This document shows positions 2,737-18,775 of a stretch of 32,000 bases of DNA, in pieces. Source of the stretch: Candidatus Kuenenia stuttgartensis. Lineage in GTDB: Bacteria; Planctomycetota; Brocadiia; Brocadiales; Brocadiaceae. Every line of letters begins with the position of its first letter. The first letter of the stretch is position 1. Under the pieces are notes generated by a model. The model saw nothing but the letters and a program-made list of their open reading frames with translations. It was not told where the DNA came from and did no database searches. The translations under genes and the position numbers were made by a program. Location of the stretch: positions 2,850,001-2,882,000 of the forward strand of contig NZ_LT934425.1 in NCBI RefSeq assembly GCF_900232105.1, given 5' to 3'.

Positions 2737-3135
2737 ATGCTTGCAAAAGATGTTATGAATAAGATAGTTGTTGCGGCAAAAAGAAACACCCTTGGCAGGG
2801 ATTTAACGGTAAAACTTCTATCAGGCATGTATAGCGGAGTACCCGTGGTGGACGAAAAAGGAAGGGTTATTGGTGTTGTAAGCGAATTCGATCTTCTCAA
2901 AGTGATTCAGGCGGGAAAAAAACTGGAACAGGTAACGGCTGAAGAAATTATGACAAAAACCCCTGTATGCGTAAAAGAAGATTCCTCCATAGAGGAAATT
3001 ATCGACCTTATGACAAAGCACAATATTATCAGGGTCCCAGTAGTAAGGAACGATATGCTTGTCGGGATTATTTCACGGTGCGATATCCTTAGCAGTATGG
3101 TAGAACCTGAGTTTGTAACCGTTTGCTACGAATAA
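2737..3135 (+). CDS. Stand-alone CBS-pair domain protein
   Basis: Two CBS repeats (DVMNKIVVAAKRNT...VPVVDEKGRVIGVVSEFDLL and EIMTKTPVCVKEDSSIEEIIDLMTKHNIIRVPVVRNDMLVGIISRCDIL). I prefer the ATG at 2737 (MLAKDVM), which is preceded by AAAGGAGGAG at 2721-2730, over the track start at 2617. Confidence 0.8.
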   Translation: MLAKDVMNKIVVAAKRNTLGRDLTVKLLSGMYSGVPVVDEKGRVIGVVSEFDLLKVIQAGKKLEQVTAEEIMTKTPVCVKEDSSIEEIIDLMTKHNIIRVPVVRNDMLVGIISRCDILSSMVEPEFVTVCYE

Positions 3136-3177
3136 GATTGTTCGCAATACACCAGACTCAGCAATCCGCAACCCAAA

Positions 3178-3209
3178 AAGTAGAGAAGCATGGCCATGCT
3201 TCTCTACTT
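3178..3209 (+). terminator. Rho-independent-type hairpin after the CBS gene
   Basis: AAGTAGAGAAGCATG / CATGCTTCTCTACTT form a perfect 15-bp stem around GC. An A-run lies on the left and ATTT on the right, so it could act on either strand. Confidence 0.6.
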
Positions 3210-3250
3210 ATTTAAAAAAGTTTTTACAGGTAATACCATAGGAAGGCAAA

Positions 3251-4348
3251 ATGGCTGAACAGACTATTAAATTTGATATTTCCGGCATGCATCGCGTTAA
3301 CTGTGCCGCTACTATTGAGCGAAGGCTGCGTGAAGTAAAAGGTATTACATCGGTACGAGTAAATTTCTCCACGGCATCCTGCCTGGTCAGCTATGATACA
3401 CATGCTATAAACAAAAGTAGTATCGCAAGATGCATAAAAAGCATTGGTTATACTGCAAAAGAAAGGATGCGAATGGACCAATCATCAAAAGGGTCCGTTC
3501 AGATAGCATGGCTGATTTATAGCATTGCAGCTTCCATTGTAATGATGGTAATCATGTATGTTCCTTTTCCAGGACTGGATAATAAGCACCTTTCCTTCCT
3601 GCAGATGGGAATCGCAACAATCACCATTCTTGGTTCCGGTATGGACTTTTTTATCAGCGCCTATAAATCCATTAAAAATCTTTTTGCCAACATGGATGTT
3701 CTCGTCTCCATAGGAGTTTTGTCTGCCTTTCTCTACAGCGTCTTTGCCGTTTTCGGCATTTTTGGCGCTTCAGGCCACGCATTTTTCGAAACATCCGTAA
3801 TGCTGATTGCCTTCATCCGCATCGGAAAGTATCTGGAAGAACGCGCAAAAGGCAGGGCAGGCAAGGCGCTGCAAAAACTCATAACACTACAGGCAGACAA
3901 AGCGCATTTGTTGTCCCCTGAAGGAAAGGAAACGAAAGTAAACGCCTCCATACTTAAGGTGGGAGATACGGTTATTGTACGGCCCGGTGAAATTATTCCG
4001 GTGGATGGTGAAATAACAGAGGGAACGGCAACAATTGATGAATCCATGGTAACTGGCGAATCAATGCCGGTTGTAAAGAAAAAAGGCGACAGCGTTATTG
4101 GGTCAACCATTAACAAAACGGGAGTCCTCATTATAAAAACCTTGCGGGTAGGCGAGAAAACCGTTTTATCTCAGATTATTACTATGGTAGAAGACGCCCA
4201 GATGGACAAGGCTCCCATACAGCGGTTTGCGGATAAAGTGTCCAATGTCTTTGTTCCAATCGTTGTCGCTATTTCCATAATAACGTTTTTCTGCTGGTAT
4301 CTCATATTTTATGACGTCACTCCCACCCTCCCTTTGTATGGGCTTTAA
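3251..4348 (+). CDS. copA: Cu(I)-type P1B heavy-metal ATPase, N-terminal fragment (frameshifted gene, part 1)
   Basis: HMA-fold N-terminus, TM helices, and an actuator domain with TGESMPV. It ends prematurely at 4348, just before the CPC helix. Confidence 0.85.
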
Positions 4349-5451
4349 AAACGGCGGTAGCAGTCCTGGTAATAGCGTGTCCCTGCGCCCTTGGGCTTGC
4401 TACGCCAACTGCCATTATGGTGGGGAGCGGCATTGGACTCAACAATTCAATACTCATAAAAAAAGCCAGCGCCCTTGAACAGATTGCGCGTATAGACACT
4501 ATCGTATTTGATAAAACAGGCACTATTACCGAAGGAAGGTTTGGGGTGACAAGCATCTTCCCGTCGGGAAAAATAAATGATAATGAACTGCTCACCCTCA
4601 CCGCCGCAGGCTGCGCCTTTTCTAATCATCCCCTTTCCCTTTCAGTTGTTGACGAAGCAAAGGCAAGAAATTTTACATGGGATACAGTTCAGGACTTCGA
4701 AGAACGTGCCGGCAGCGGGATACTTTGCAAATACAGGGATAAAGCACTGATGATAGGCAATGAGTCGCTTATGACATCAAACAATATCAATATTGAAGAC
4801 TTACGAAACAAAGCAGGGGAGTTGGAATATAGGGGAGAATCCATTCTCTACGTCTCTTACGACAATGTCTGCAAGGGCATGCTGGGGCTTGCGGATACAA
4901 TAAAACAAAACGCAAAGGACGTGGTAGCGTCATTACAAAAAATGAATATACGTGCCGTAATGATTACAGGAGATAACGAGCCTGCGGCAAATGCCGTCTC
5001 TTCCGCGGTAAACATAAAAGAATACCATTCGAAAGTTTTGCCGGGAGAAAAAAGGGACATTGTAAAAAACTATCAGGAACGGGGAATGAAGGTGGGAATG
5101 GTAGGCGACGGCATAAATGATGCGCCGGCCCTGGCGCAGGCGGATGTAGGCATTGCCATTGGCGCGGGAACAGACGTTGCAAAGGAGGCAGGCGACATAA
5201 TACTTATGAAAAATGATATTATGGACATTGTGCGGGCTATCCGGTTAGGGAAAAAAACACTGGCAAAGATACGGCAAAATTTGTTCTGGGCATTTTTTTA
5301 TAACTCCATTGGAATCCCGGTTGCCGCCGGCGCCCTGTATCCTTTCTTTGGCATCAGCCTTAAACCTGAATATGCCGGACTTGCAATGGCGCTTTCTTCC
5401 GTATCCGTAGTAACAAACTCCCTGCTCTTAAAACGGATGTCCTTCCGCTGA
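4315..5451 (+). CDS. copA: Cu(I)-type P1B heavy-metal ATPase, C-terminal fragment (frameshifted gene, part 2)
   Basis: The frame is open from 4315 and reads [33 protein letters not shown], with CPC at 4378-4386, upstream of the first ATG at 4417. Then come [25 protein letters not shown] (FFYNSIGIP) and MALSSVSV. The CPC / YN / MxxSS combination is the P1B-1 Cu/Ag signature. Confidence 0.85.
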
Positions 5452-5580
5452 CGTGTATGATAAATCTTCCTGACCGCTTATTTTCGGAATATTTGCCAAT
5501 GCTGACTGTTTCATAGCGAGGCGCAGCAGTAACCAGGAAAAGTTACTTAGTTCTGAATAATAAATACTGTTGTTTTTTTG

Positions 5581-5712
5581 ACAAATTCGAAACTCGAATA
5601 TCGAAATCCGAAAGAAATTCTAATATCAAATTAAAGAAATTAAAAACGAGGTTTGGAACATTTGAATTTGTAATTTTGAAATCGTTTCGGATTTCGTGCT
5701 TCGGACTTTGTC
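5581..5712. repeat. CGAAAT-rich hairpin repeat, copy A (between convergent copA and the FAD oxidoreductase gene)
   Basis: CGAAATCCGAAA at 5602-5613 is the perfect reverse complement of TTTCGGATTTCG at 5685-5696. Further pairing: CGAA 5595-5598 with TTCG 5700-5703, and AAATTC 5615-5620 with GAATTT 5664-5669. The element contains the reverse complement of an AAATTCAAATGTTCCAAACC box at 5650-5669. Confidence 0.7.
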
Positions 5713-5787
5713 GTAAGCTCAATCGAACGATTTAGCAATCTTCAATAAACAAAAACCTACAAAAAAAGATGTTTTTACGGAGTAATA

Positions 5788-6843
5788 TTATAGAGGCATA
5801 AGATCCCTTCCTGCTATTTTTGCCCCTAATTTCCACGATACCGAAGTCTGTCTTCTTTCCTTCTTTGTCAATTCCGTATACGCAGAAATCACATCTTCGC
5901 CCGATTTAATACAGGCGCATATCGCTTCCGCAGCAAAAAGCCCCGACGACAATGCACATGAAATCCCTTCTCCAAAGGCATTCAAAAACCCCGCGGCTTC
6001 CCCCACCAGAAGGATATTGCCCTTCCCCAGAGAAAAATTCCCCGAAGCGCACATAGTATTTCCCAGGCAGCTTGTCTTTCGCACCAATTTTTTCAATGCC
6101 AGCCCATGTTCTTTCTCCAACATTTCGTGAAATGCATTTAGACAAGGAAGGATTTTAGCCCCCTTTCTTACGGATGTGCCAAACACCTGCAAATCATCCT
6201 TTACACTGAACCATGCATACACTTCGCCATATTTTTGGTCAAGGAATCCATGATAAAAATATGGGTCTAAACTGGACTGCCCTTCATAATAATTTTGATA
6301 TGCAATAAACCATTTCACATTACGCTCAAATGCTGGTGAAAGCATTGCCCTGATACAAGAAACACTTCCCTCGGCGCTTATCAAATACCTGCATTTTGCC
6401 TGGCGGATTTTATTTTCTCTGGCATCATAATAATGAACAACAACCGCATTCCCCTCCGTTTCAAACCCTTTAAACACAGCACAATCCATCACTTCTGCCC
6501 CGGAATTGCTGATAAGCCAGTAATCGTATTCCGAACGCCATACATTCGGCGCCCCCTCACTATCCTTTGAAAACGGCCAGTCTGAATAATTCCCAAGATC
6601 ACTCCAGAACCTTACCCCTTTTAACAGCTTTGGCTGTACATAAACGGCATCGGGAATCCTGCCAAAATAGCGTTCGGTGATCTCCTGGGATTTTTTAAAA
6701 ATAATGCCTGAACATATCTTATATCGGGGAAGTTTCTTTTTCTCCAATACCAGTACCCGGAGTCCCTCGCCGGTCAGCCTTTTTGCAGCAGCAGCGCCCG
6801 AAGGGCCTGAACCTACCACTACGGCATCATATATCGCATTCAT
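5788..6843 (-). CDS. FAD-dependent oxidoreductase, geranylgeranyl-reductase-like family
   Basis: N-terminal dinucleotide fold YDAVVVGSGPSGAAAAKRLTGEGLRVLVLEKK, then KICSG, and a late LLVGEAAGF motif typical of this flavoprotein family. Confidence 0.8.
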   Translation of the reverse strand: MNAIYDAVVVGSGPSGAAAAKRLTGEGLRVLVLEKKKLPRYKICSGIIFKKSQEITERYFGRIPDAVYVQPKLLKGVRFWSDLGNYSDWPFSKDSEGAPNVWRSEYDYWLISNSGAEVMDCAVFKGFETEGNAVVVHYYDARENKIRQAKCRYLISAEGSVSCIRAMLSPAFERNVKWFIAYQNYYEGQSSLDPYFYHGFLDQKYGEVYAWFSVKDDLQVFGTSVRKGAKILPCLNAFHEMLEKEHGLALKKLVRKTSCLGNTMCASGNFSLGKGNILLVGEAAGFLNAFGEGISCALSSGLFAAEAICACIKSGEDVISAYTELTKKERRQTSVSWKLGAKIAGRDLMPL

Positions 6844-7145
6844 CTTATACTCGCTTTCTCCAAATAAGTTTCCGGGAAACGATAGTTAACTTTTCCCATC
6901 AAAAAAACGTATTTGCCGGAACAGACTTTCAAAGGTAAAATGAAAACAGTTGTTTATCAATTATATATTACATTATGTACTGGCAATAATAAAAAACACT
7001 TTGGTTGCGGAATGTGCTTTTTATGGGGAATGTGCCCCTGATTTTCCATTTCTCCAAAAGTCTGAATTGTTACCATAGCATAGCAAAGCCGCAACCGAAA
7101 AGAGTTTAACCACAAAGGGCTTGGCGCGGCCTTTGGCCGCAACCA

Positions 7146-7210
7146 AATTCAAAATACGAATATCGAAATACGAAACAAATTCAAATGACAAAAAACCCAA
7201 TGCTCCAAAC
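7146..7210. repeat. CGAAAT-rich repeat, copy B (left-arm-only half copy)
   Basis: AAATTCAAAATACGAATATCGAAATACGAAACAAATTCAAATGACAAAAAACC matches the left arms of copies A and C and carries the AAATTCAAATG box at 7177-7187. I found no matching right arm nearby. Confidence 0.55.
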
Positions 7211-7373
7211 TTTACGTAATCCTCATCTAATCAATGCCTTACGGTTATGCATTTTGAAAAACGAGCATAAAAAACAAGAAGTTGATGGATAGTAGTACAA
7301 AGAAAAACTTACAAAAAAAGAAGTTTTTACATGGTAATACCATATCTTACAACTCATTCCGGAGGGAACAAAA

Positions 7374-7991
7374 ATGAAAAAGACGTTCCTTGTATATCGA
7401 TTAGCGCTTATACCATTTATTTTATTTACATTCTGTAGCGTTATTAACAGTAAGGAGGCACATGCCATGCAGTCAATAAAAGGAAAAAAGGTTGTAATAA
7501 TTATCGCAAAAAATAATTTCAGGGACGAAGAATTGCTGGAACCAAAGGCAATTCTGGAAAAAAACGGTGCGGCGGTAACAATCGCTTCTTCTTCATTAAA
7601 AGAATCAAAGGGGATGTTAGGGGCAAAAGTATCTCCGGATATCCTTTTTACGGATATCGCTGTTGGCGATTATGACGCAGTAATATTTGTGGGGGGGACA
7701 GGGTCAAGCGAATACTGGGACAACCCTACGGCGCATACGATTGCCAAAGAGGCAAACAAGGTAAACAAAATAGTGGGAGCAATTTGCATAGCGCCGGTGA
7801 CGCTTGCAAAAGCCGGATTGCTTAAAGGGAAAAAAGCCACAACATATTCCTCCACCGTAAATGATATCAAATCCGAAGGGGCAAATTACACCGGCGAGGG
7901 CGTTGAAAGAGACGGGAATATAATAACGGCAGACGGACCTGCATCGGCAAAGAAGTTCGGCGAGGCCATTGTAAAGGCGCTTCAGAAATAA
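7374..7991 (+). CDS. DJ-1/PfpI family protein with N-terminal Sec-type signal peptide
   Basis: The core KKVVIIIAKNNFRDEELLEPKAILEKNGAAVTIAS...DAVIFVGGTG...GAICIAPVTLAKAGLLKGKKATTY has the nucleophile-elbow Cys in AICIAP. The N-terminus MKKTFLVYRLALIPFILFTFCSVINSKEAHA looks like a signal peptide with an AHA cleavage site. Confidence 0.85.
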   Translation: MKKTFLVYRLALIPFILFTFCSVINSKEAHAMQSIKGKKVVIIIAKNNFRDEELLEPKAILEKNGAAVTIASSSLKESKGMLGAKVSPDILFTDIAVGDYDAVIFVGGTGSSEYWDNPTAHTIAKEANKVNKIVGAICIAPVTLAKAGLLKGKKATTYSSTVNDIKSEGANYTGEGVERDGNIITADGPASAKKFGEAIVKALQK

Positions 7992-8059
7992 AAAATATAT
8001 CCATTTAGGCGATTAGCGCCTCAACATCGACAAAATTTTGTCGATATATCAAAGCGTCT

Positions 8060-8204
8060 AAATACGAAAGTCGAATGTCGAAATTCGAAACAATACCGAA
8101 ACTCAAAATTCAAATGTTCAAAACCAAGACCATGAGATGTGTCCGTTTGCTGTGGCCATAAAACCTGCCTGTTTCGTATTTCGTGCTTAGTATTTCGGAT
8201 TTCC
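8060..8204. repeat. CGAAAT-rich hairpin repeat, copy C (downstream of the DJ-1 gene)
   Basis: AAATACGAAA at 8060-8069 is the reverse complement of TTTCGTATTT at 8172-8181. The left arm CGAATGTCGAAATTCGAAAC and right arm GTTTCGTATTTCGTGCTTAGTATTTCGGATTTCC resemble copy A. The AAATTCAAATGTTCAAAACC box is at 8106-8125. Confidence 0.65.
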
Positions 8205-8230
8205 TTTTCGCAGCACTGTCTGCGAAAAGG
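8203..8230 (+). other. Perfect 11-bp-stem hairpin abutting repeat copy C
   Basis: CCTTTTCGCAG cactgt CTGCGAAAAGG, followed by TTT. No ORF ends nearby, so its role (terminator, sRNA end or part of the repeat) is open. Confidence 0.4.
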
Positions 8231-8300
8231 TTTAGCACCTTATAAGTAATTTCTTTGCACTTTCTGGCAAATAAAGTAGGCCTTTGGTTGCTTTCTCAAT

Positions 8301-8327
8301 GTAGAGCGACGAGCCTCGTCGCTCTAC
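8301..8327 (+). other. Perfect 13-nt-arm palindromic hairpin in a gene-free gap
   Basis: GTAGAGCGACGAG c CTCGTCGCTCTAC. AACGGCAACTTTTAAAAAA follows. Confidence 0.4.
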
Positions 8328-8594
8328 AACGGCAACTTTTAAAAAATCACAATCTGTGAACCCGTAATGTATAATGTAGAGACCCATTGAAGAAGGCTTT
8401 GGAAAAGGATTATTTGTAGTAATTTCAGCGGAAGCAACGAAATGAAAATATGTATGTGAAGGGCAGGGAGGAATATGTGGCCTTTTGTTTCCTTTAACAA
8501 ATTAGTTGATTATATTAGCCAAAAGTCTTAAATTGTCGCAGAATATAAGGGATGCAAAACAGATAATGGCTTTTTCAGATAAGGAGAAACGAAT

Positions 8595-8837
8595 ATGAAT
8601 CCGCTTTTACAACGTATTACCATCGATCAGGGTGTCTGCTTTGGCAAACCCTGCATTCGTGGCACTCGCATCTGGGTATCACTGATTCTTGATTTTCTGT
8701 CCAATGGGATGAGTATTGAGGAGATTCTTGCAGAATATCCTCAACTGACGGAGGAAGATGTTCGGGCTGCTCTTGCCTATGGAGCTGAGATGGCGCGAGA
8801 ACGATATGTTGAAATACCAACCGGGACGACAGGATGA
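8595..8837 (+). CDS. DUF433-family antitoxin-like protein
   Basis: IDQGVCFGKPCIRGTRIWVSLILDFLSNGMSIEEILAEYPQLTEEDVRAALAYG is the classic DUF433 pattern. It has a 4-nt ATGA overlap with the next gene. Confidence 0.8.
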   Translation: MNPLLQRITIDQGVCFGKPCIRGTRIWVSLILDFLSNGMSIEEILAEYPQLTEEDVRAALAYGAEMARERYVEIPTGTTG

Positions 8838-9205
8838 AGTTTAAATTAGATGAGAACTTTGGAACACGAACACAGGAAATTTTTCGTGCAGCGGGACATG
8901 ACATTCAAACAGTCCGTAGTCAGGAACTCCAGGGGTGTTTGGATCGAAATCTCTATGAGGTATGCTGTAAGGAACAACGTTGTCTGATAACGCTGGACTT
9001 GGATTTTGCGGATGTAATCAGCTTTCCACCATGTTCAGCAAGTGGCATAGTTGTCATTCGTATTCCCCGGAATCCAGGTTTTGCTTTGCTGGAACAACTG
9101 GTCCTGCAATTTCTACAATTACTCACTCAAATGCCCGTAGAGAAGAAGCTTTGGATTGTCGAGGTCGGCCGAATTCGGATTCATCAGTCAGAAGCAGGAA
9201 AATGA
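8834..9205 (+). CDS. DUF5615-family PIN-like (Mut7-C-like) putative toxin
   Basis: MKFKLDENFGTRTQEIFRAAGHDIQTV...CLITLDLDFAD is the usual partner pattern found next to DUF433 genes. Confidence 0.75.
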   Translation: MKFKLDENFGTRTQEIFRAAGHDIQTVRSQELQGCLDRNLYEVCCKEQRCLITLDLDFADVISFPPCSASGIVVIRIPRNPGFALLEQLVLQFLQLLTQMPVEKKLWIVEVGRIRIHQSEAGK

Positions 9206-9224
9206 CTGTGATAATCAAATAAAG

Positions 9225-9258
9225 GCGGGGCGGGGGTTTTAACATTTGCCCGCCCCGC
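9225..9258. terminator. GC-rich hairpin between convergent operons (candidate bidirectional terminator)
   Basis: GCGGGGCGGG at 9225-9234 pairs with CCCGCCCCGC at 9249-9258 across a 14-nt loop. On the reverse strand it is followed by a T-rich run (CCTTTATTTGATTAT). Confidence 0.5.
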
Positions 9259-9271
9259 GTTGGAGCTTGAG

Positions 9272-9378
9272 CTTAGGCGCTGTAAATAAATTAACGTCTC
9301 ACTTTGAAGCCTTGATTGCATGTTTCCAGAGCATGAAATTGATCTACTTGATACCTTTATTTATTTACAGTGCCTTAC
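9272..9378 (-). mobile_element. 99-bp MITE, copy A (107 bp identical to copy B, inverted)
   Basis: The element core is 9276-9374, flanked by TTA at 9273-9275 and 9375-9377. Terminal inverted repeats are GGCGCTGTAAATAAATTAACG and the reverse complement of GGCACTGTAAATAAATAAAGG. The reverse complement of 9272-9378 is identical at every base to 13694-13800. Confidence 0.8.
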
Positions 9379-9578
9379 TTGCCTTTAAGTTCCTGGATGC
9401 GTTCTGCTGCTCCTGCGAGCTCTTTCTTCAGTTGGTCACTGTACTCTTCCAACATTTCCTGTTCCTCTTTTGTGGATATGAAACGTCGGAAGAAAGGACG
9501 ACATCCACACCCGCAGCAGCCACAGCTACATCCCAAAACCCCCGTCATTCTTTGGCTTCCTCCTGGTTTGCAACACAT
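9375..9578 (-). CDS. Small Cys-rich protein with C-terminal coiled coil (DUF5320-like tail, metallothionein-like head)
   Basis: MCCKPGGSQRMTGVLGCSCGCCGCGCRPFFRRFISTKEEQEMLEEYSDQLKKELAGAAERIQELKGK has 8 Cys in 67 aa. GGAGGT lies 8-9 nt before the ATG at 9578. An alternative start at Met11 also has AGGAGG upstream. The gene is the second in an operon behind an ArsR gene. Confidence 0.6.
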   Translation of the reverse strand: MCCKPGGSQRMTGVLGCSCGCCGCGCRPFFRRFISTKEEQEMLEEYSDQLKKELAGAAERIQELKGK

Positions 9579-9647
9579 TTTTCATCACCTCCTTCCTATA
9601 AAATTCGATATTGTGCTGACCACGTCAGCAAACATATAAAGATAGTA

Positions 9648-9680
9648 GTTAGGTATTTAAGCATATACTTAATTATAAAA
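9648..9680 (-). promoter_or_regulatory. Operator-like box upstream of the Cys-rich gene
   Basis: GTTAGGTATTTAAGCATATACTTAATTATAAAA has arms TTAGGT (9649-9654) and ACTTAA (9667-9672) separated by 12 nt. The same architecture recurs at 10128-10160. Confidence 0.4.
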
Positions 9681-9694
9681 TTAAAAAAATTTAC

Positions 9695-10108
9695 CTACTT
9701 CTTTGGGGTTGCTATTTCTTTAATCCTTTCATGGACAGTTCTGATTTCATTTTGCAATTCCTTCTCATATTTCCTGAGTAATTCTAAACTTGCTCCACTC
9801 AGTTCTTTCTCTTTGAATTTGCCGGTTTCTGAGCATCCACATGTACAAACTTCGTTTAAAATCTGTCGGCAATTTTCTAACGCCTCTTCATCTATGGAAT
9901 ACGGTATCCAGTATCCCTTTCTTTCACTCCTGACAAGACCTGACTGCTTCAATATTTTTAGATGTTGTGATACCGCGGCTGGTGTTATGCCAACCAGTTC
10001 TGCAATATTTTTGACGCCAAGCGGCCCCTTGGACTTCAGGAGATCAATTATTCTAACCCGTGTTTCCACGGCTAATACCTTAAAAATTTCGGAAGGTACT
10101 AACTTCAT
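9695..10108 (-). CDS. ArsR/SmtB-family transcriptional regulator with C-terminal CxCGC plus coiled-coil extension
   Basis: The winged HTH is FKVLAVETRVRIIDLLKSKGPLGVKNIAELVGITPAAVSQHLKILKQSGLVRSERKG. The extra tail is VCTCGCSETGKFKEKELSGASLELLRKYEKELQNEIRTVHERIKEI. RBS AGGAGC precedes the ATG. Confidence 0.85.
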   Translation of the reverse strand: MKLVPSEIFKVLAVETRVRIIDLLKSKGPLGVKNIAELVGITPAAVSQHLKILKQSGLVRSERKGYWIPYSIDEEALENCRQILNEVCTCGCSETGKFKEKELSGASLELLRKYEKELQNEIRTVHERIKEIATPKK

Positions 10109-10127
10109 TTCTTTATGCTCCTATTCT

Positions 10128-10160
10128 GTTAAGTATTTTAGTAATAACTTAATTAAAATA
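10128..10160 (-). promoter_or_regulatory. Operator-like box upstream of the ArsR gene
   Basis: GTTAAGTATTTTAGTAATAACTTAATTAAAATA has arms TTAAGT (10129-10134) and ACTTAA (10147-10152) separated by 12 nt. Confidence 0.4.
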
Positions 10161-10390
10161 TTACAAAAGAGCGTGTTTGTCAAGCGCTTTTTTTACAGCA
10201 GCAATATTTTTATTTTGGATGCAGATACACGCAGATTATCAGGATTACATACAAAATTGCCAGTGTGTGTCTGAGAAAATCAGCGTCCTCTTTTGATGGA
10301 AATAAGTGCCTTTGAAGAAGGTTTCGGGAAGGGATTGTTTGTCATAATCGTTGCGAAGGTAATGAAATGAAATTCCTGTACGAATAAAAT

Positions 10391-10744
10391 TTATTTTCTC
10401 GTGGCTGTTTTTGTCTGTCTTCTTTCACTCTCCTTTCGAACTTCTTCGCATGAACGTCGTACAACAGGGTAATTTCCGGAAATAAACATAAATAGCGAAT
10501 CTGCCATTTTGGGGCGTGTGATGTAATAACAACGAAGCGCTCCATCCTCATAAAAATCAATTATCTTAAGCCTTCGCAATACCGAAAGATGTTGAGAGAG
10601 GTTGGACTGTTCAATGTCCAATAAATCCTGGATATCCGTTACACACTTAGCCCCTTCAGCAATCTCTTCCAATATCAACAATCTGGTTGGATGTCCCAGG
10701 ATCTTTAAAATTTCCGCTTTGTCTCTTATATCTAATTTATTCAT
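10391..10744 (-). CDS. ArsR-family transcriptional regulator (paralog 1 of a two-Cys subtype)
   Basis: ILKILGHPTRLLILEEIAEGAKCVTDIQDLLDIEQSNLSQHLSVLRRLKIIDFYEDGALRCYYITRPK. It is closely related to the product of 15186-15536. Confidence 0.85.
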   Translation of the reverse strand: MNKLDIRDKAEILKILGHPTRLLILEEIAEGAKCVTDIQDLLDIEQSNLSQHLSVLRRLKIIDFYEDGALRCYYITRPKMADSLFMFISGNYPVVRRSCEEVRKESERRQTKTATRK

Positions 10745-10772
10745 TTGTCATTCCTCTCTTTGTATATTTTAC

Positions 10773-10812
10773 TTGATTGAAATATAATATGATAATATTC
10801 TAATACAATCAA
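10773..10812. promoter_or_regulatory. AT-rich imperfect palindrome in the divergent ArsR/methyltransferase intergenic region
   Basis: TTGATTG (10773-10779) and CAATCAA (10806-10812) bracket the near-palindromic AATATGATAATATT. The position fits an ArsR operator. Confidence 0.35.
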
Positions 10813-10938
10813 TAATATTTTCAGGGGTTAGTTTTTTTACATCTGGAGGTTCAAGGGATACTTCAGGTGGCGGTATTTTAACTCAGATAACTTGCTAAAA
10901 TAAATGAAGAATGGCTTTAGATAAAAAGGGGGAAATTT

Positions 10939-11757
10939 ATGAGTGAAACCATTTCCGATATTGGCGTATTTAAATCCCGGCTCCAGGCGACCTGGGCAGC
11001 AGGAAATTTCGGAGAGATTGCAAAATCGTATGAAGATGGCGCAGCAGAATTTGTTGATAGACTGAAGGTCACTCCCGGCCTTAGAGTACTTGATGTTGCA
11101 TGCGGTACCGGTAATCTTACTTTGCCATGTGCGCGGGCCGGCGCATGTGTTACCGGAGTAGACATAGTTCCTAATCTCCTGGAACAAGGCAGAGATCGTG
11201 CGAAAACAGAGGGACTCCTGATCAAGCTTGATGAAGGCGATGTTGAAAACCTTCCCTATCCCGACCACACCTTTGATTTGGTGGTTACGATGTTTGGGGC
11301 AATGTTTGCCCCACACCCGGAAAAGACTGCGGCAGAGCTTGTCCGCGTATGCCGCCCTGGCGGACGTATCGCTATGGCCAACTGGGTGTCTTCCGGATTT
11401 ATTGGACAGGTATTCAAGACGACCACCAGTCGTGTTCCTCCACCGCCGGGAGTGCCATCTCCACTTCTTTGGGGAGACGAAGCCACGGTGCGTGAACGCC
11501 TGCAGAAAGGCACATCAGCATTAGAGTTTGCTCGATGCATTATATCCTTTAAGTTCCCGTTTGCTCCTGCAGAAGTGGTCGAGTTTTGGAGGCAGTTTTA
11601 TGGTCCGACACAGCGAGCGTTCGCTGCACTTGATGCCGATGGACAAGCCGCATTTCGCAAAGATCTCGAAGGGCTTTGGACCGCCCACAACAAAGGAAAT
11701 AGAGGCTCCACTCTCGTTGAGTCGGAATACCTGGTGGTGGTGGCGCTCCGGACATGA
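10939..11757 (+). CDS. Class I SAM-dependent methyltransferase (Methyltransf_11-like)
   Basis: VLDVACGTGNLTLPCARAGACVTGVDIVPNLLEQGR (motif I), DEGDVENLPYPDHTFDLVV and CRPGGRIAMANW. It is noticeably GC-richer than its neighbours; a 68-nt sample I counted was 41 G+C. Confidence 0.85.
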   Translation: MSETISDIGVFKSRLQATWAAGNFGEIAKSYEDGAAEFVDRLKVTPGLRVLDVACGTGNLTLPCARAGACVTGVDIVPNLLEQGRDRAKTEGLLIKLDEGDVENLPYPDHTFDLVVTMFGAMFAPHPEKTAAELVRVCRPGGRIAMANWVSSGFIGQVFKTTTSRVPPPPGVPSPLLWGDEATVRERLQKGTSALEFARCIISFKFPFAPAEVVEFWRQFYGPTQRAFAALDADGQAAFRKDLEGLWTAHNKGNRGSTLVESEYLVVVALRT

Positions 11758-11770
11758 TCATTTCAACCGC

Positions 11771-11799
11771 TTGACAACCCTTTTTCTGCCGGGAATATT
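11771..11799 (+). promoter_or_regulatory. Candidate sigma70-type promoter for the outer-membrane/cytochrome operon
   Basis: TTGACA at 11771-11776, a 17-nt spacer, then AATATT at 11794-11799, about 60 nt before the ATG at 11860. Confidence 0.3.
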
Positions 11800-11859
11800 G
11801 CTAACATTGTGTCACTCGTAAAACTCTTCTTGGTTTTCCTGAAAGGTGAAGGCAATAAA

Positions 11860-14004
11860 ATGAAACTGTGGTTATCTTTATTCTCTTTCTGTCTTATTAT
11901 TTTTATCGCCTTGCATGACGTAGCCTATGCAGATATCGAACAGGTTGGCACTAATGCCCCTGATTTTACACTTCCCAATATCAAAGATAAAAAAAAGACC
12001 GAAGATATAAGTGATAAATACCTCAGAGCCCCTTTGCTTGGGTTAGACATGGATAGGGTTGCCGATGCACTTCAAGAGATAAAGCCAGAATCCAACTGGT
12101 TCCAGACGAAACCCGAATCAGATAGATACAAAACCATTTTTAGTATTGAATCTATAGCAACGGGTATTGACGTTGACTTCAAAGACGCTACTGCAAAAAC
12201 TCAAGGCGCCTTTGATTATACGATGGGATTTCTCACACAGAGGATGCACAAGGAGTGGGAACCAACGTACACACTACCCCGGCCGTCGAATGTATTTTCC
12301 ATCGAAGAAGGTGCGGCAATAACGACAAGGGCAAGGGCGGGTGTTTATGCAGATATGTCAGAGGACTGGACTGTAGGCCTGGAGGTTGATGCATATGGAC
12401 TGGGAGGTGATGCCGGTACCGGAGATATATGGGGTGTTACCCTGCCGTATTTTTCCAATCCTTTTGCGGGACACTCGAATGACGTCTCACTCAACACGGC
12501 CTGGGCGCGGTACCAACCCTTAGATACCACTATGTCCGTAGGCGCCTTCACTCCGCTGCACGTGGGTGATTACGGAACCCAATCCGACCTTTTACGGACC
12601 AGACTATTTGCCCTTTTATGGAGTTAATGTTGTCAGGCGATTTTATAACCCCTTCGTTATTCCATCAACCCTGTACGAGGTATATTTTGCAGAATTACCG
12701 GAAGATTCAGATTCTACCAGTTGGGTGGGTGGATTCTACGTGGGAAGGGAATATGAAGATATGAAATTTGGTTTCAATTTTATGAGTCCGTTTAACAGGG
12801 GCGCATCAACATCTGAAACAGACTCACCCTTACAGGGTATGGTGGATGGTAATCCGGTACGATGGGAGTCTCCTTACAATAAAACAGGGAAACAGGACGC
12901 GTTTGTCCTCGGTGCAGAGTACTCGTATAATTTCCTGACGACCTATAAGGCATGGGTTGCCTATGCACATAGTATTTATCGACCGCAATGCGTTCTCTAT
13001 CTGCCATGTCTTTTTCTCTAGTTGCCTATGCACATAGTATTTATCGACCTATCGGAAGCGATGGAATCGATGTTCATGGAAATCTGTTTAATACGGGCAT
13101 CAGTGGCACAGTCGGGAGGGTAAGTTTTAACTTGGAAGGCATTTGGGTCGAACCGAAGTATGACCCCTTTGTGATAAAGATGGAAAGACCAGGCGATGTC
13201 CAATCTCCTGGTCTCTTTTATGAACTTCCCTATTTCACAACATATGCGGATAGTTGGCAACTCCACGACGCAAAGAAGTATCCGCAAAATAGAGAGGGAG
13301 TACGACTGCACCTTGACTATCCATTCCCTGGAATCCTTTCTTTTACAAGGCTTTTTGCAGACATGGATTACTTACGACAGATAGAAAGTTCAAAGGCAGG
13401 CAATGTTCAAGAGCCTGGTTTTATAGAGCCTTTCTTTGGTATCAGAACACAGGAAGGCACTGGAAAAAAGGGGAGTATATCTCACGGAGGAATAGGTGTT
13501 GCCTCTGATTTGCCTTACAATCATAAGGTCTCCCTGGTATATTCGCTGTATCAATACAGACGTAAAACGGATGATGCCAATAATATGGATTTTGATGTGA
13601 ATGCTATTTCCCTGACATACGGGATCCCAATACTTTATCGGCTCAGGTCTAAGATGTATTTTAATGTAGGGAATACCTTCTTAGCAGTTGATGGTAAGGC
13701 ACTGTAAATAAATAAAGGTATCAAGTAGATCAATTTCATGCTCTGGAAACATGCAATCAAGGCTTCAAAGTGAGACGTTAATTTATTTACAGCGCCTAAG
13801 TATTTCTCTGAATCGCATAATGCAGACTTCTTTCAATCAGCGCCGTTTATGGGAATTGATTATAAGTATCTACGATCGCCTGATACTGTCATATCGTTCT
13901 TTGTTAATTCAAGGTATCTTGTACAGAACGACAGAGCAAAGACACTACTCTTGGGTGATTATGATGCCTTTTTTACCAGCTTTGGTTTAAAAATCGAATT
14001 TTGA
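11860..14004 (+). pseudogene. Outer-membrane beta-barrel (porin-like) protein gene, disrupted three times
   Basis: The signal peptide is MKLWLSLFSFCLIIFIALHDVAYA, with RBS AGGTGA before the ATG at 11860. The body is split over track ORFs 11809-12627, 12566-13021 and 12988-13707. An untracked in-frame tail at 13801-14004 ends YDAFFTSFGLKIEF*, a typical beta-barrel C-terminus with terminal Phe. Lesions: a +1 frame change near 12542-12600, a 65-bp duplication at 12956-13049, and a 102-bp MITE insertion at 13695-13799. Confidence 0.6.
13694..13800 (+). mobile_element. 99-bp MITE, copy B (inside the outer-membrane gene)
   Basis: The element core is 13698-13796, flanked by TAA at 13695-13697 and 13797-13799. 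It brings in-frame stops at 13705, 13726 and within 13768-13773. Core plus one TAA is 102 bp, so the host frame is the same on both sides. Confidence 0.8.
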
Positions 14005-14012
14005 GCATAGAC

Positions 14013-15173
14013 ATGAACACCTTTAAAATAATTCTGTTTTTAACAGTTAGTATTATCGCCTCCCATGTTTTGTTGGGTAGTGATGCAGGTGTCACATTTA
14101 TTGGCCCATCAAATTATATTCCCCGGTTAGACTTGCCCCAAAATATTCCTTTACATAGCGCCGACTCATGTAAAGATTGTCACCGGGAAATTTATGACCA
14201 ATGGCGGGAGTCCTTGCACAGCAAATCATCGACAAACCCTGTATTTCAGGCATGCTGGACGGCAAGGAATAATCCTCCCTTCTGCTCTAATTGCCATTTT
14301 CCCATGCTGGAACAGAAGCCTAAAATATTACGGGGGTTTAAAGAAACTGGCCCTTCGCCTTTTGTCGCAATAAAAAACAAAGAATTTGATGCTATTCTTA
14401 TGAAAGAGGGCGTGACTTGTGTGGTTTGTCATTTGCGAAATAAAACCATTTATGGCCCCCGAAAGATAAAGGAAGGGGAAGCGCCGCACCCGGTTAAATA
14501 CGATCCGTCTTTTCAAAAGTCTGAGTTCTGTTATACCTGTCATTCCTGGGGCTTTCCACGGGCAAGGATTAAAAAGACATGCTATACCAGCGATGAGTAT
14601 AAAAGGTCGGGCAAAAAGGAGACCTGTCAGGATTGTCACATGGAGAGGAAAGAAGGGCTTGCCTCATTGGGAAAGCCAAGGCGTATTTACGGTATGCATG
14701 ACCAGAAAAGCTCTCGCAGTCCTGAGGAATTAAGAAAAGCGCTTAAAACAGAATTAAAAACGGAAAAGGATACCTCTAAACCGGGAGATAAGGTAAAGGC
14801 CGAAATAAGGGTCACCAACACCGGGGCCGGGCATTATGTGCCAACGGGTTGCCCGGTCAGGGCCATTGCTGCCCGCGTGGCGGTGCTGGATGAAAATGGA
14901 GAGGAAAAGGGATTAAAGGAATATTTCATTACAAGGACATTCGAGTTTCCCGGATACCCAACGGAGGTGAAAGATGGGAGATTGGCGCCTGGAGAGTGTA
15001 AATCATTTTATTACAAATACAAAATCCCACGTGATGCATCCTTTAAAAAGCTAACGTTGCGATTAGACATGATTGAATATTTAATATTCCCCAAGAAGGC
15101 TGATGAGGCGCCCATACCTTTCAGCAAGATTACCGTACCTTTTTATTCTACATCGGTGGAAATAATGAAATGA
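14013..15173 (+). CDS. Pentaheme c-type cytochrome with signal peptide and C-terminal beta-sandwich-like domain
   Basis: Five CxxCH motifs (CKDCH, CSNCH, CVVCH, CYTCH, CQDCH). The first sits in the CxxCHxxxxxxWxxSxH context common in multiheme reductase/c554-like families. The N-terminus MNTFKIILFLTVSIIASHVLLG is hydrophobic. The later TNTGAGHYVPTG motif is seen in many multiheme cytochrome families. The ATG at 14013 is preferred over the track TTG at 14001. Confidence 0.85.
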   Translation: MNTFKIILFLTVSIIASHVLLGSDAGVTFIGPSNYIPRLDLPQNIPLHSADSCKDCHREIYDQWRESLHSKSSTNPVFQACWTARNNPPFCSNCHFPMLEQKPKILRGFKETGPSPFVAIKNKEFDAILMKEGVTCVVCHLRNKTIYGPRKIKEGEAPHPVKYDPSFQKSEFCYTCHSWGFPRARIKKTCYTSDEYKRSGKKETCQDCHMERKEGLASLGKPRRIYGMHDQKSSRSPEELRKALKTELKTEKDTSKPGDKVKAEIRVTNTGAGHYVPTGCPVRAIAARVAVLDENGEEKGLKEYFITRTFEFPGYPTEVKDGRLAPGECKSFYYKYKIPRDASFKKLTLRLDMIEYLIFPKKADEAPIPFSKITVPFYSTSVEIMK

Positions 15174-15185
15174 GGAAGTTTGAAA

Positions 15186-15536
15186 TTGAAAAAACTTGAT
15201 TTAAGAAAAAAAGCTGATCGATTACGAATTCTTGCACACCCGACAAGGCTGGCAATCCTGGAAGAACTTTCCCGTGGAGCTAAATGTGTCACAGACATAC
15301 AGGATTTGCTTGATGTGCCTCAGTCAAACGTCTCACAGCATTTAACGGCTCTTCGTCATGAACAGATTGTCGATTATCATGAGGACGGCAAACTTAGGTG
15401 TTATTACATTACGCGCCCAAAGCTGGTTGAAAAATTGCTTGCATTCTTATCGGAGGAATATCCTGTGGAGAGACGTTCTCCGGAGTCAGTTCACGGAGAA
15501 GGAAAGAGTCGGGAAAAGGCGTGCTCTCTTCGGTAG
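15186..15536 (+). CDS. ArsR-family transcriptional regulator (paralog 2 of the two-Cys subtype)
   Basis: RLRILAHPTRLAILEELSRGAKCVTDIQDLLDVPQSNVSQHLTALRHEQIVDYHEDGKLRCYYITRPK. The TTG at 15186 has GAGGA 8 nt upstream and aligns with the start of paralog 1 (MNKLDIRDKA versus MKKLDLRKKA). The track start is 15180. Confidence 0.85.
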   Translation: MKKLDLRKKADRLRILAHPTRLAILEELSRGAKCVTDIQDLLDVPQSNVSQHLTALRHEQIVDYHEDGKLRCYYITRPKLVEKLLAFLSEEYPVERRSPESVHGEGKSREKACSLR

Positions 15537-15571
15537 AAAACTTTTATGCATTTTTAGGAGGTAGTTATTGG

Positions 15572-16732
15572 ATGGGTGAAGTGAAAGTTTACTTTGATAA
15601 TAATGCAAGCACTCCAATTGACCCAAACGTGATCGTTGAGATGGAGCCGTTTATCAGGCAATATTATGGCAATCCTTCCAGTGGCCATTGGTTTGGTAAG
15701 AAGGGAAGGGAGGCTGTTGATACGGCAAGAAGACAAGTAGCTGAATTAATCGGGGCGAGTCCTCATGAGATTATCTTTACGAGCGGCGGGAGCGAGTCTA
15801 ATAACCATGCATTAAAAGGTGTCGCTTTTGCCCTTAAAGGAAAGGGGAATCATATTGTTACTTCGGTTGTTGAGCATCCTGCAATAATCAATCCCTGCAA
15901 ATATCTTGAAACAAAGGGATTCAAGGTAACGTATGTTGGCGTGGATGAGTATGGCTGCGTCAATGCCGATGATATTGAAGAAGCGATAATTGATGAGACA
16001 GTTTTAGTTTCGGTGATGCATGCAAACAATGAAACCGGAACTATTCAGCCGATAGCGGAAATTAGCAAGATATGCAGAAAAAGAGGAATTTATTTTCATT
16101 CTGACACGGCACAGTCCGTTGGAAAAATACCAGTGGACGTGAACGAGCTAGGCGTCGATTTGTTGACCATTGCAGGCCATAAATTTCATGCACCCAAAGG
16201 AGTCGGGGCGTTATACATCCGTGAAGGTGTGGACGTGGAACCATTGATTCATGGCGCCAGCCACGAAATGGGCCTGCGGGCAGGGACAGAAAATGTTGCA
16301 GGGGTAGGAGGGCTGGGAAAAGCAAGTCTGATGTCTGCCGTGAGAATGGATGAGTACATTAAAAATATCCGGTATTTGAGAGATTTGCTGCATGAAAAAC
16401 TGAAGGGAATTGCAGCAGTGAAGTTAAACGGCCATCCCACGCAAAGACTTCCTAATACCCTGAATGTGAGTTTTGAGGGCATTGACAGCTCAGCATTGGT
16501 ATCCAAGCTGGAAGACGTCGCTCTCTCAACAGGATCTGCTTGCCATGATCAGGTGAGACGGCCTTCCACTGTACTAACCGCCATGAATATTCCGGCAGAA
16601 TTGGCAATGGGCGCAGTGAGGTTTAGTCTGGGGAGATTCAATACGGAAGATGAGGTAAATTACGTTGTTGATGAAATAAAAAGAGTTATGAGTGAAATAG
16701 GTATTAAAAAGATGAGGGGGGAAGATGTATGA
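15572..16732 (+). CDS. Cysteine desulfurase (NifS/IscS-type, class V aminotransferase)
   Basis: VYFDNNASTPIDP, FTSGGSESNNHALKG, the PLP lysine in AGHKFHAPKGVGALYIR, and the active-site loop STGSACHD. The ATG at 15572 follows AGGAGG. The track start at 15521 overlaps the ArsR gene. Confidence 0.9.
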   Translation: MGEVKVYFDNNASTPIDPNVIVEMEPFIRQYYGNPSSGHWFGKKGREAVDTARRQVAELIGASPHEIIFTSGGSESNNHALKGVAFALKGKGNHIVTSVVEHPAIINPCKYLETKGFKVTYVGVDEYGCVNADDIEEAIIDETVLVSVMHANNETGTIQPIAEISKICRKRGIYFHSDTAQSVGKIPVDVNELGVDLLTIAGHKFHAPKGVGALYIREGVDVEPLIHGASHEMGLRAGTENVAGVGGLGKASLMSAVRMDEYIKNIRYLRDLLHEKLKGIAAVKLNGHPTQRLPNTLNVSFEGIDSSALVSKLEDVALSTGSACHDQVRRPSTVLTAMNIPAELAMGAVRFSLGRFNTEDEVNYVVDEIKRVMSEIGIKKMRGEDV

Positions 16733-17049
16733 AGATTGGAGTTATTATTTCAAGTAATGATGCCGAAACTTGCTGGAATGCCTTACGTTTTGCAAACTTC
16801 TGCCTGTCCCGGGAAGACGCGGTCAAGATATTTTTTACAGGCAAAGGAGTTGATTATCAAAGGATAAGCACTGAGAAGTTCAATACGATTGAGCAGGCGG
16901 AAAAATTTGTGCAAAGCGGGGGAAGGGTTTATGCCTGTGGCACTTGCATCAGATTAAGAAACCAGGAAGGTTCTGAAATGTGTCCTGTTTCTACAATGAA
17001 AGACATGTACGAAATTGTAAAAGAGAGCGATAAAATCGTAACATTCTAG
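16729..17049 (+). CDS. DsrE/DsrF-like sulfur-relay family protein
   Basis: MKIGVIISSNDAETCWNALRFANF...GGRVYACGTCIRLR...CPVSTMKDMYEIVKESDKIVTF. It has a 4-nt ATGA overlap with the desulfurase gene. Confidence 0.75.
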   Translation: MKIGVIISSNDAETCWNALRFANFCLSREDAVKIFFTGKGVDYQRISTEKFNTIEQAEKFVQSGGRVYACGTCIRLRNQEGSEMCPVSTMKDMYEIVKESDKIVTF

Positions 17050-17058
17050 ACAAATTTC

Positions 17059-18775
17059 GTATCTATTCAGCGAAAATAATTTAGAATTTACTTGACAGAT
17101 AATGAGAAAAGCAGGCAGCAAGTATGGTTAGCGATATATAGGGTTGCAGATGCGGTCACTGCAGTCCATAGGAAGTCTTTACAAAGAGAGGCGTGAGGTC
17201 TGTTCAGTGATAGAAATTCGAGCCTTTGTGGTGTGTTATAGAGCGAAAGAAAAGGGTGAAAAAATCTGTGGTATAATAGATGCAGTAGATAATTTCAGGC
17301 TAATTATACAGGTATCATCCATTGACGATAGAGAATATAGACGTAGACGCAACACTCCGGAAAGTAGAGAAGCTACTTTCTGAAGAGAAAGGGCTGTCAC
17401 CGGCGGTGAGGTCAATGATAGAGTTGTTGGTATTATTGATAACACTGCTGGCAGGACGTCTGAACCGGAACAGCCGCAACAGCAGCAAGCCGCCCTCAAG
17501 TGATCCGAATCGCAAGAGAGAAAGCAAGGCGAAGGGTGAAAGGAAGGCAGGCGGGCAAAAGGGCCGTGATGGAGTAACGCTCAAAAAGGTAGACAATCCT
17601 GATGAGGTGGAAGTAATAAAAGTAGACCGGAGGAAGTATCCGCGCAGCAAATACAAGGTGGTAGGTTACGAAGCACGCCAGGTGTTTGATATAAAGATTT
17701 CGCGTGTAGTAACGGAGTATCGTGCAGAGGTAGTTGAGGATGCGAAAGGGAATCGGATTGTAGCGTCATTTCCGGAAGGGGTAACAAAGGCGGTGCAGTA
17801 TGGTCCGGATTTGAAAGCGCATGCAGTCTATATGTCGCAGTATCAATTGATACCCTACAAGAGGATACAGGAGTATTTTGAAGGGCAGATTGGTATACCG
17901 CTGAGTGAAGGTTCTATTTACAACTTTAACAGGGAAGCCTACGAGTCATTGGAACCCTTCGATGTGAGAGCCAGGGAAGAACTTACAAAATCAGAGGTGA
18001 TGCATGTGGATGAAACGGGCATCAACAAGAATGGAGACAGGTATTGGTTGCACAGTGCATCCAATAGTTTGTGGACGTACTTTTTCCCACATGAAAGGCG
18101 TGGAACAGAAGCGATAAATAGTATTGGTATATTACCTGAATTTAGGGGGATTCTTTGCCATGACCATTTGAAGTCGTATTACACCTATAGCAACTGTATG
18201 CATGCGTTGTGTAATGCGCACCACTTGAGGGAATTGGAGGGGGTGTGGGAAGATGATAATAAGCAGGAGTGGGCGAAAGAGATGAAAGCATTACTTAAAG
18301 AGATAAACCGTGCGACAAGCGATGCGGGGGGAATACTGGGAACCGATGAGTCTGAAAAATACCGGCAAAGGTATAGGACGATACTACAAAACGCAGAAGC
18401 CGAAAGCTCTCCTCCTGATGAAACGAACCGTAAGGGAAAAAGGGGTAGGGTAAGAAGGACAAAGGCCCGGAATCTTCTGGAACGATTGAGGAAGTATGAG
18501 GGTGATGTGCTGAGGTTTATGGACAATAAAAATGTCCCCTTTACGAACAATTTGGCAGAAAACGATATCAGGATGACGAAGGTTCAGCAGAAGATATCGG
18601 GCTGTTTTCGTTCTTTGGAGGGAGCGAAAATTTTCTGCCGCATTCGGAGTTATCTCTCGACCTGTCGAAAACAAGGGGTAAATTTGAGCCGGGCATTACA
18701 GATGCTATTCCGTGGTGAATTGCCTGATTTTGCCAGCTCGTAGCGACAGTGGATGAAAATACGCTGAATAGATAC
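17059..18775 (+). mobile_element. IS66-family insertion sequence (1717 bp, single transposase ORF)
   Basis: The terminal inverted repeats are GTATCTATTCAGCG at 17059-17072 and its reverse complement CGCTGAATAGATAC at 18762-18775. There is a perfect 8-bp direct duplication CAAATTTC at 17051-17058 and 18776-18783. An 8-bp TSD is the IS66-family norm. Confidence 0.9.
17322..18743 (+). CDS. IS66-family transposase (TnpC-type)
   Basis: HVDETGINKNGDRYWLH, ILCHDHLKSYY, HALCNAHHLREL and PFTNNLAENDIRMTKVQQKISGCFRS are hallmark IS66 TnpC blocks. It uses a TTG start per the track. Confidence 0.9.
   Translation: MTIENIDVDATLRKVEKLLSEEKGLSPAVRSMIELLVLLITLLAGRLNRNSRNSSKPPSSDPNRKRESKAKGERKAGGQKGRDGVTLKKVDNPDEVEVIKVDRRKYPRSKYKVVGYEARQVFDIKISRVVTEYRAEVVEDAKGNRIVASFPEGVTKAVQYGPDLKAHAVYMSQYQLIPYKRIQEYFEGQIGIPLSEGSIYNFNREAYESLEPFDVRAREELTKSEVMHVDETGINKNGDRYWLHSASNSLWTYFFPHERRGTEAINSIGILPEFRGILCHDHLKSYYTYSNCMHALCNAHHLRELEGVWEDDNKQEWAKEMKALLKEINRATSDAGGILGTDESEKYRQRYRTILQNAEAESSPPDETNRKGKRGRVRRTKARNLLERLRKYEGDVLRFMDNKNVPFTNNLAENDIRMTKVQQKISGCFRSLEGAKIFCRIRSYLSTCRKQGVNLSRALQMLFRGELPDFASS

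Follow-up and report, generated by a model that had tools for sequence, protein, structure and literature searches.

A recently active miniature inverted-repeat transposable element of the ISAzo13 type in "Candidatus Kuenenia stuttgartiensis" MBR1

The Correia elements found in Neisseria and the IS630-Spn1-linked RUP of Streptococcus pneumoniae are non-coding elements of about 100 bp that carry terminal inverted repeats (TIRs) and fold into hairpins. They occur in multiple copies within or beside genes, are polymorphic between strains, and are probably mobilized in trans by DDE transposases. In Acinetobacter and Enterobacter, pairs of MITEs (miniature inverted-repeat transposable elements) flank integrons or resistance genes as mobilization units. 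The ISAzo13 family of insertion sequences (ISs), cataloged in ISfinder and described by the models NF033519 and PF07592, is related to the eukaryotic Zator transposons, and 3-bp target duplications have been reported for both (PMC10045372; PMC5718144). The locus described here lies in a 32,000-nucleotide stretch, the window, of the "Ca. Kuenenia stuttgartiensis" MBR1 chromosome (G000 C1:2850001-2882000), where two identical copies of a 99-bp MITE, copy A and copy B, bracket a 4.3-kb block of genes in inverted orientation. With a probability of roughly 0.88, the repeats are copies of an ISAzo13-family MITE that inserted separately and recently, forming an incidental inverted pair and not a functional unit.

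The MBR1 genome is a single contig of 4,406,153 bp with 41.1% G+C, closed by long-read SMRT (single-molecule real-time) sequencing at a depth of at least 118x (PMC5854607). Neither of the two Kuenenia genome papers mentions a MITE (PMC5854607; PMC7709395), and a literature search found nothing that joins Kuenenia with MITEs or describes an ISAzo13-derived MITE.

Nine identical copies and their empty sites

The two arms of the window repeat, 9272-9378 and 13694-13800, are 107 nt long, complementary at every position, and separated by 4315 nt. Repeat search and direct reading agree on this, confirming the exact reverse complement noted in the initial annotation. The identity is made up of the 99-bp element, the 3-bp target duplications at its two sides, and a single flanking C beyond each of them; the match of this C is coincidental, and the other seven genomic copies differ at those outer bases. 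The element starts with GGCGCTG and ends with CAGTGCC. Its two TIRs, GGCGCTGTAAATAAATTAA and GGCACTGTAAATAAATAAA, match at 17 of 19 positions (15 of the outer 16, with one mismatch) and extend imperfectly to about 27 nt, in agreement with the repeats of about 20 bp initially described. The interior had been called non-coding, and it can hold no open reading frame (ORF) of more than 33 codons; reading frames that enter the element meet a stop within 0-14 nt. The whole element folds as a hairpin of -30.5 kcal/mol (z = -5.9).

Across the 4.4-Mb chromosome there are nine exact copies of the 99-bp core, all 100% identical, so the element is not confined to the window. A 3-bp direct repeat flanks each of them (9/9), TTA at six and TAA at three, giving the consensus TWA. 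The duplicated TTA/TAA flanks of the initial annotation thus stand, and its alternative 4-bp reading, CTTA/TAAG, does not: both the nine copies and the empty alleles show 3 bp. The recurrence is far beyond chance, given nine exact 99-bp copies in 4.4 Mb of a closed genome and their reappearance in independent assemblies. A collapsed or chimeric assembly at the two window copies is very unlikely, because the SMRT genome is closed and independent assemblies from other projects contain both copies as well. Among the assemblies examined, the only sequence variant of the Kuenenia MITE is on the metagenome contig JAANMU010018106.1 (L067:1-140), where copy B sits at the same position, its right TIR bearing one T-to-C substitution.

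Ten conspecific loci (L020-L029) were retrieved by exact-protein look-up with the window methyltransferase, L020 being strain CSTR1 (CP049055; PMC7709395). Together with the window they give 11 haplotypes, in which single-nucleotide polymorphisms (SNPs) were read across 12.8 kb (window 5000-17800). The block is absent at the DNA level from the three same-genus genomes compared, which are hence uninformative on empty sites. Both copies are present in the window, L020, L023, L024, L026, and L027, and neither is present in L021, L022, and L025; L028 carries copy B alone and L029 copy A alone. In the four of ten other assemblies that lack copy A, the empty site is precise, GAGC-TTA-CTTG, with a single TTA between identical flanks. 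The empty site of copy B, GATGG-TAA-GTAT, likewise holds a single TAA. Precise single-TWA empty alleles were found for six of the nine MBR1 sites in all (A, B, 456279, 1033771, 1493353, and 3797450), and two sites near 3.82 Mb are filled in both assemblies retrieved (n=2).

The presence of each copy is completely linked to a nearby SNP: copy A follows the strain pattern of SNP 9032, and copy B that of SNP 12919. L028 contains a short MITE-free-type patch (<2.4 kb) within a MITE-type background, and L029 switches haplotype type downstream of about 12,900. Because each MITE state is linked to its nearest SNP and the mixed states carry the matching SNPs, the haplotypes with one copy are recombinants, not products of excision or repeated insertion, and each insertion arose once. 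Excision was also considered as the origin of the L028 state and rejected, as a SNP 240 nt away changes along with the MITE. The initial annotation had attributed the zero divergence to very recent transposition or gene conversion; the polymorphic single insertions uphold recency, and gene conversion is not needed. Its core reading, two recently transposed MITE copies with imperfect TIRs and TTA/TAA flanks, is borne out by the nine identical copies and the empty sites.

The locus as a whole is a mosaic. Very few SNPs separate the haplotypes across window 5000-17800 in L020-L029, and of 153 informative pairs of sites, 33 contain all four gametes, which indicates frequent homologous exchange between co-existing Kuenenia strains.

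One empty allele has an unusual form. At site 1,033,771 (L008:1493-1611; chromosome positions 1033762-1033880), five other strains carry TTA-GGCGCT-A-AGTGCC-TAA, that is, TWA, the first 6 nt of the MITE, an A, the last 6 nt, and TWA. By its sequence, the allele resembles the footprint of a Tc1/mariner-style excision, re-used afterwards as a target, or else the targeting of end-like sequences. Footprint motifs of this kind show no genome-wide excess (8, versus 1-23 for control motifs), and the site stays a single case.

The partner insertion sequence and its spread

When the whole genome was scanned for the TIR at up to two mismatches, only one site pair came up besides the MITE ends, at 2,108,166 and 2,109,461. 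These sites bound a single-copy IS of 1,296 bp (chromosome positions 2108166-2109461), 750 kb away from the window, whose TIRs, GGCTCTGTAAATAAATAAAGGTA, match perfectly over 23 bp and whose target duplication is TTA. The initial annotation had found no autonomous element in the window and had suggested that a parent might be recognized by the same TIR, which proved to be the case on both counts. The IS encodes one intact ORF, on the minus strand of L012 at 2024-3256, for a DDE transposase of 410 amino acids (aa), which matches NF033519, the ISAzo13-family transposase model (5.7e-174, 578.7 bits, cut-off 200), and PF07592 (8.8e-138, 458.9 bits, cut-off 26.9), with a weak match to IS630 as well. 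MITE and IS agree at 26 of 27 positions at one end and 15 of 16 at the other. Ten further ISAzo13-family paralogs in the genome (45-53% aa identity) have unrelated ends. The target of the IS is palindromic, ACGTAT-TTA before the element and TTA-ATACGT after it (L012:1992-3305; chromosome positions 2108157-2109470), and no comparable palindrome occurs at the nine MITE targets except at the footprint-like site.

From the matching ends and the co-occurrence of the two elements, we infer that this transposase probably mobilizes the MITE. The 410-aa protein would most likely bind the TIRs of about 27 bp in trans, cut out or copy the MITE, and insert it at TWA, duplicating the trinucleotide. A recent burst within the K. 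stuttgartiensis lineage gave rise to the nine identical copies.

Several observations weigh against this picture. The IS is single-copy at one fixed site in many samples, with no independent sign of transposase activity; the exact transposase was found in 47 sample blocks, in a ParA-IS-TPR context every time, and the IS remained single-copy while its MITE multiplied. Position 4 of the TIR is T in the resident IS and G or A in the MITE, and neither the interior nor the left subterminal region of the MITE resembles the IS; because of these differences, the MITE did not arise from this IS copy by a simple recent deletion. In addition, no matching transposase was found in two other MITE-bearing metagenome-assembled genomes (MAGs), from Sulfuricella and a gammaproteobacterium, both of which are incomplete.

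These two MAGs belong to a wider set of carriers. The MITE was not found in the three congeners searched, and homologs that cover its full length and conserve the interior are present in a Brocadiaceae MAG (86%), the Sulfuricella MAG (89%, TTA flanks), the gammaproteobacterial MAG (81%, TAA flanks, flanking G+C 60%), and a Gallionella MAG (77-79%), with one copy per MAG. The Gallionella MAG also contains a 1,296-bp IS whose transposase is 84% identical (79% at the DNA level), and the ends of its IS and MITE share the variant GGAGCTG. Judged by these homologs, the IS-MITE pair has spread horizontally between phyla that share groundwater and wastewater habitats. A search for carriers found no plasmid and no viral contig with the element.

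Firmicutes MAGs (Lachnospiraceae and Eubacterium) hold short elements with GGAACTGTAAATAAAT ends, TTA/TAA flanks, and an unrelated interior (L034:1373-1469, L040:6371-6474, and L044:4024-4118). This suggests that the end core CTGTAAATAAAT and a TWA target are common to a wider set of ISAzo13-type MITEs.

The bracketed block and the interrupted genes

The MITE copies of MBR1 are not evenly distributed. Two gaps between neighbors measure at most 5.3 kb and a third 21 kb, and two tight clusters hold five of the nine copies; with nine positions placed at random, two or more gaps no longer than 5.5 kb would arise with a probability of about 0.003. The clustering fits local hopping or an accumulation in tolerated regions, and the window pair may have arisen by local hopping. 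A second inverted pair, 5.2 kb apart (L069:8910-14268; chromosome positions 3818910-3824268), has the same 99 bp and splits two genes for giant proteins, SBBP/RCC1 and M23/TIG/PA14; the window pair hits a stop codon and a barrel gene instead. A further copy 21 kb upstream of that second pair clips a CheW gene (129 aa versus 155 aa). At least six of the nine MBR1 insertions truncate genes, namely the barrel gene, Fic, CheW, the two giant-protein genes, and an unnamed gene at 1,857,211.

The alternative that survives best, improbable as it is, gives the window pair a role in inversion. RecA-type homologous recombination between the copies, which the initial annotation had raised, would keep the 4.3-kb block in both orientations in the population, flipping two ArsR genes, a methyltransferase gene, and most of the barrel gene. 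Perfect inverted identity over 99-107 bp is known to suffice for low-frequency homologous recombination. Homologous exchange is active at the locus, as the four-gamete pairs and the gene-conversion-like patch in L028 show, and 29 inversions separate MBR1 from KUST genome-wide (PMC5854607). Against this, gene order and orientation are the same in all seven assemblies with both copies (the window, L020, L023, L024, L026, L027, and equivalent places), although assemblies show the majority form only. A scan of metagenome contigs for the recombinant junction gave 0 matches and carries no weight, as the control scan missed JGI Kuenenia contigs known to carry a MITE end. Profile searches found no dedicated recombinase domain in any gene within or beside the block.

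A second alternative, highly improbable, concerns the conservation of the interior across phyla, which would reflect a co-opted RNA or DNA structure such as a terminator, an mRNA-stabilizing hairpin, or a regulatory site. The hairpin is strong and the same fold recurs across five taxa, with three compensatory pairs, the 77-89% alignments between phyla run over the full length, and copy A lies in a 3' untranslated region adjoining a putative terminator. However, long TIRs give a hairpin in any element, and the interior is just 58% identical between Kuenenia and Gallionella. The MITE has no match in Rfam, and a promoter and terminator scan detected no such signal in the element. Moreover, the insertions are polymorphic and very young, and most of those in MBR1 lie inside genes that they truncate.

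Assignment to an IS5 or PIF/Harbinger-type transposon, a type that likewise duplicates TNA/TWA trinucleotides, on the strength of the 3-bp TWA duplication, which is classic for these groups, is hardly credible given that the TIR scan finds a single ISAzo13-family IS as the only partner, that the IS-MITE pairing is repeated in Gallionella with matching end variants, and that ISAzo13 makes 3-bp duplications too (PMC10045372).

A composite origin, in which both MITEs and the genes between them arrived as one 4.5-kb unit, is suggested by the flanked cargo of regulators and a methyltransferase and by the MITE-bracketed units of other bacteria, but it is refuted by the outer flanks (TTA on the left, TAA on the right), by the matched 3-bp duplication of each copy, by the presence of the block at the same place in strains with no MITE, only A, or only B, and by the position of copy B within a gene whose halves adjoin in empty alleles. 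Separate insertion of two MITE copies is thus retained, and their inverted arrangement is incidental. As far as assemblies can tell, the 4.3-kb block is neither a mobile nor an invertible unit. The features of the locus are collected in Table 1.

Table 1. Features at and between the two MITE copies, in window coordinates
Feature	Position	Strand	Basis or remark
G+C-rich hairpin, GCGGGGCGGG ... CCCGCCCCGC	9225..9258		Between convergent DUF5615 gene and 67-aa gene; direct reading
Copy A, left target duplication TTA	9273..9275		Single TTA in L021, L022, L025, L028
MITE copy A, 99 bp	9276..9374	+	100% identical to 8 other genomic copies
Copy A, right target duplication TTA, equal to the TAA stop of the 67-aa gene (minus strand)	9375..9377		Stop offset 0 from target duplication
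67-aa Cys-rich ORF, unchanged by insertion	9375..9578	-	ORF list and conspecific products
ArsR/SmtB-family regulator	9695..10108	-	PF01022 1.8e-13, NF033788 1.3e-24
Second ArsR/SmtB-family regulator	10391..10744	-	PF01022 1.3e-11, NF033788 1.6e-20
Class I S-adenosylmethionine-dependent methyltransferase	10939..11757	+	PF08241 1.2e-23
Outer-membrane beta-barrel-like gene, pseudogene in three frames	11860..14004	+	ORFs, CSTR1 empty-site join, homologs
65-bp frameshifting insertion in barrel gene	12956..13020	+	6/11 haplotypes
Copy B, left-side target duplication TAA (+ strand)	13695..13697		Single TAA in L021, L022, L025, L029
MITE copy B, 99 bp, inverted	13698..13796	-	Repeat search and empty alleles
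Copy B, right-side target duplication TAA	13797..13799		Empty alleles

Copy A inserted exactly into the TAA stop codon of a 67-aa Cys-rich gene, whose product had no family match above the curated threshold in profile searches. Since the stop was itself the target and the duplicated triplet rebuilds it, copy A is neutral for coding. The initial annotation had the MITE supplying the last bases of this ORF; the MITE in fact contributes no coding bases, and the product is 67 aa in filled and empty strains alike. RecG, at site 1,493,353, behaves in the same way: the duplication and the element's first G together reconstitute its stop, and the product is 686 aa in both alleles. With copy A in place, the 67-aa gene is set apart from the neighboring G+C-rich hairpin, which from its sequence is likely a bidirectional terminator.

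The window also contains part of a separate dispersed intergenic repeat family rich in TTCGAAAT/CGAATATCGAAA (window 5582-8202; chromosome positions 1033897-1033976 and 3703362-3703524). A repeat unit of some 160 nt is present 3-4 times, and the genome has at least 20 occurrences of a 34-nt motif (window 8170-8203).

Copy B lies, as the initial annotation held, inside the gene of an outer-membrane protein. The uninterrupted form, taken from the CSTR1 allele with the empty site restored, encodes 662 aa, with a signal-peptide-like N-terminus and the C-terminal end FGLKIEF. With the MITE in place, the protein ends in AVDGKAL followed by a stop, losing its last 65 residues, which include the terminal aromatic beta-signal. 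In two homologs, P0001 (649 aa, 91% identical) and P0002 (670 aa, from a Nitrospinae MAG, 46%), the sequence stays collinear over the point of insertion and has F as its last residue, and intact homologs read uninterrupted through the site as AVDG(K/E)(Y/F)FSE. Distant relatives carry an SLH domain. The predicted structure of P0001 is all-beta with about 24 strands, at low confidence (predicted local distance difference test 51, predicted template-modeling score 0.54). All 50 of its 50 best matches in the PDB are outer-membrane barrels, at template-modeling (TM) scores of just 0.23-0.38, and the model thus supports the predicted outer-membrane barrel assignment at class level only.

The barrel gene of MBR1 carries two lesions besides the MITE, an 11-bp deletion and a 65-bp insertion. 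Across the 11 haplotypes, the lesions comprise two deletions near 12574, one of 11 bp and one of 5 bp, a C-to-A nonsense change near 12825, the 65-bp insertion, and copy B. In the 65-bp insertion, a 29-nt duplication of adjacent sequence precedes 36 nt found nowhere else in the genome. No intact allele exists among the 11 K. stuttgartiensis haplotypes, the gene being broken in a different way in every one; homologs in other Brocadiaceae (649 aa) are intact. A tentative and rather unlikely reading is that MITE insertion is one of several independent routes by which populations, mostly reactor-grown, are selected to lose particular envelope proteins. It is based on at least five different lesions among 11 haplotypes and on the MITE copies that split the two giant surface-protein genes. 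If it is true, the MITE burst would be adaptive, for instance as escape from a phage or predator that uses the protein as a receptor, or as the shedding of a costly porin, rather than merely neutral.

A 390-aa cytochrome c gene lies 3' of the barrel gene on the same strand (window 11860-15173 for the two), with five CXXCH motifs and an MtrC/MtrF-like domain match, and MtrB is among the generic barrel fold matches of the P0001 model. A Pcc/Mtr-like porin-cytochrome reading of the two genes was rejected: the Pcc cluster published for Kuenenia lies at another locus and has a cytochrome with 12-14 hemes, and the fold comparison gives generic outer-membrane barrel matches at the low TM scores quoted above.

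Comparison with known elements

The repeats of the window are a real and recently active ISAzo13-type MITE. It is ordinary mobile DNA that is documented unusually completely, and current understanding of how MITEs work is unchanged by it. Its value lies in providing, for the little-studied ISAzo13 family, an example of a MITE with target duplications, empty sites, a partner IS, and population haplotypes. Gene models of a reference anammox genome are also corrected: the annotation gives the 662-aa barrel gene as fragments, and the same MITE splits Fic, CheW, and the two giant surface-protein genes.

The element resembles ISAzo13-family ISs in the TIRs it has in common with the resident member and in its 3-bp duplication. 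It differs from them in its length of 99 bp, the lack of an ORF, the unrelated interior and left subterminal region, and TIR position 4. It is like the MITE-bracketed mobilization units in that two identical copies flank a multi-gene block; it differs from these in that a duplication and an empty allele go with each copy separately, strains free of the MITE already possess the block, and no outer duplication is shared. With Correia elements and RUP it shares all the traits named at the outset, from a length of about 100 bp to probable mobilization in trans by a DDE transposase. In contrast to these elements, which duplicate TA, the Kuenenia MITE duplicates the 3-bp TWA and is paired with an ISAzo13-family partner, and it stands apart in its low copy number (nine), its zero divergence, and its anammox planctomycete host.

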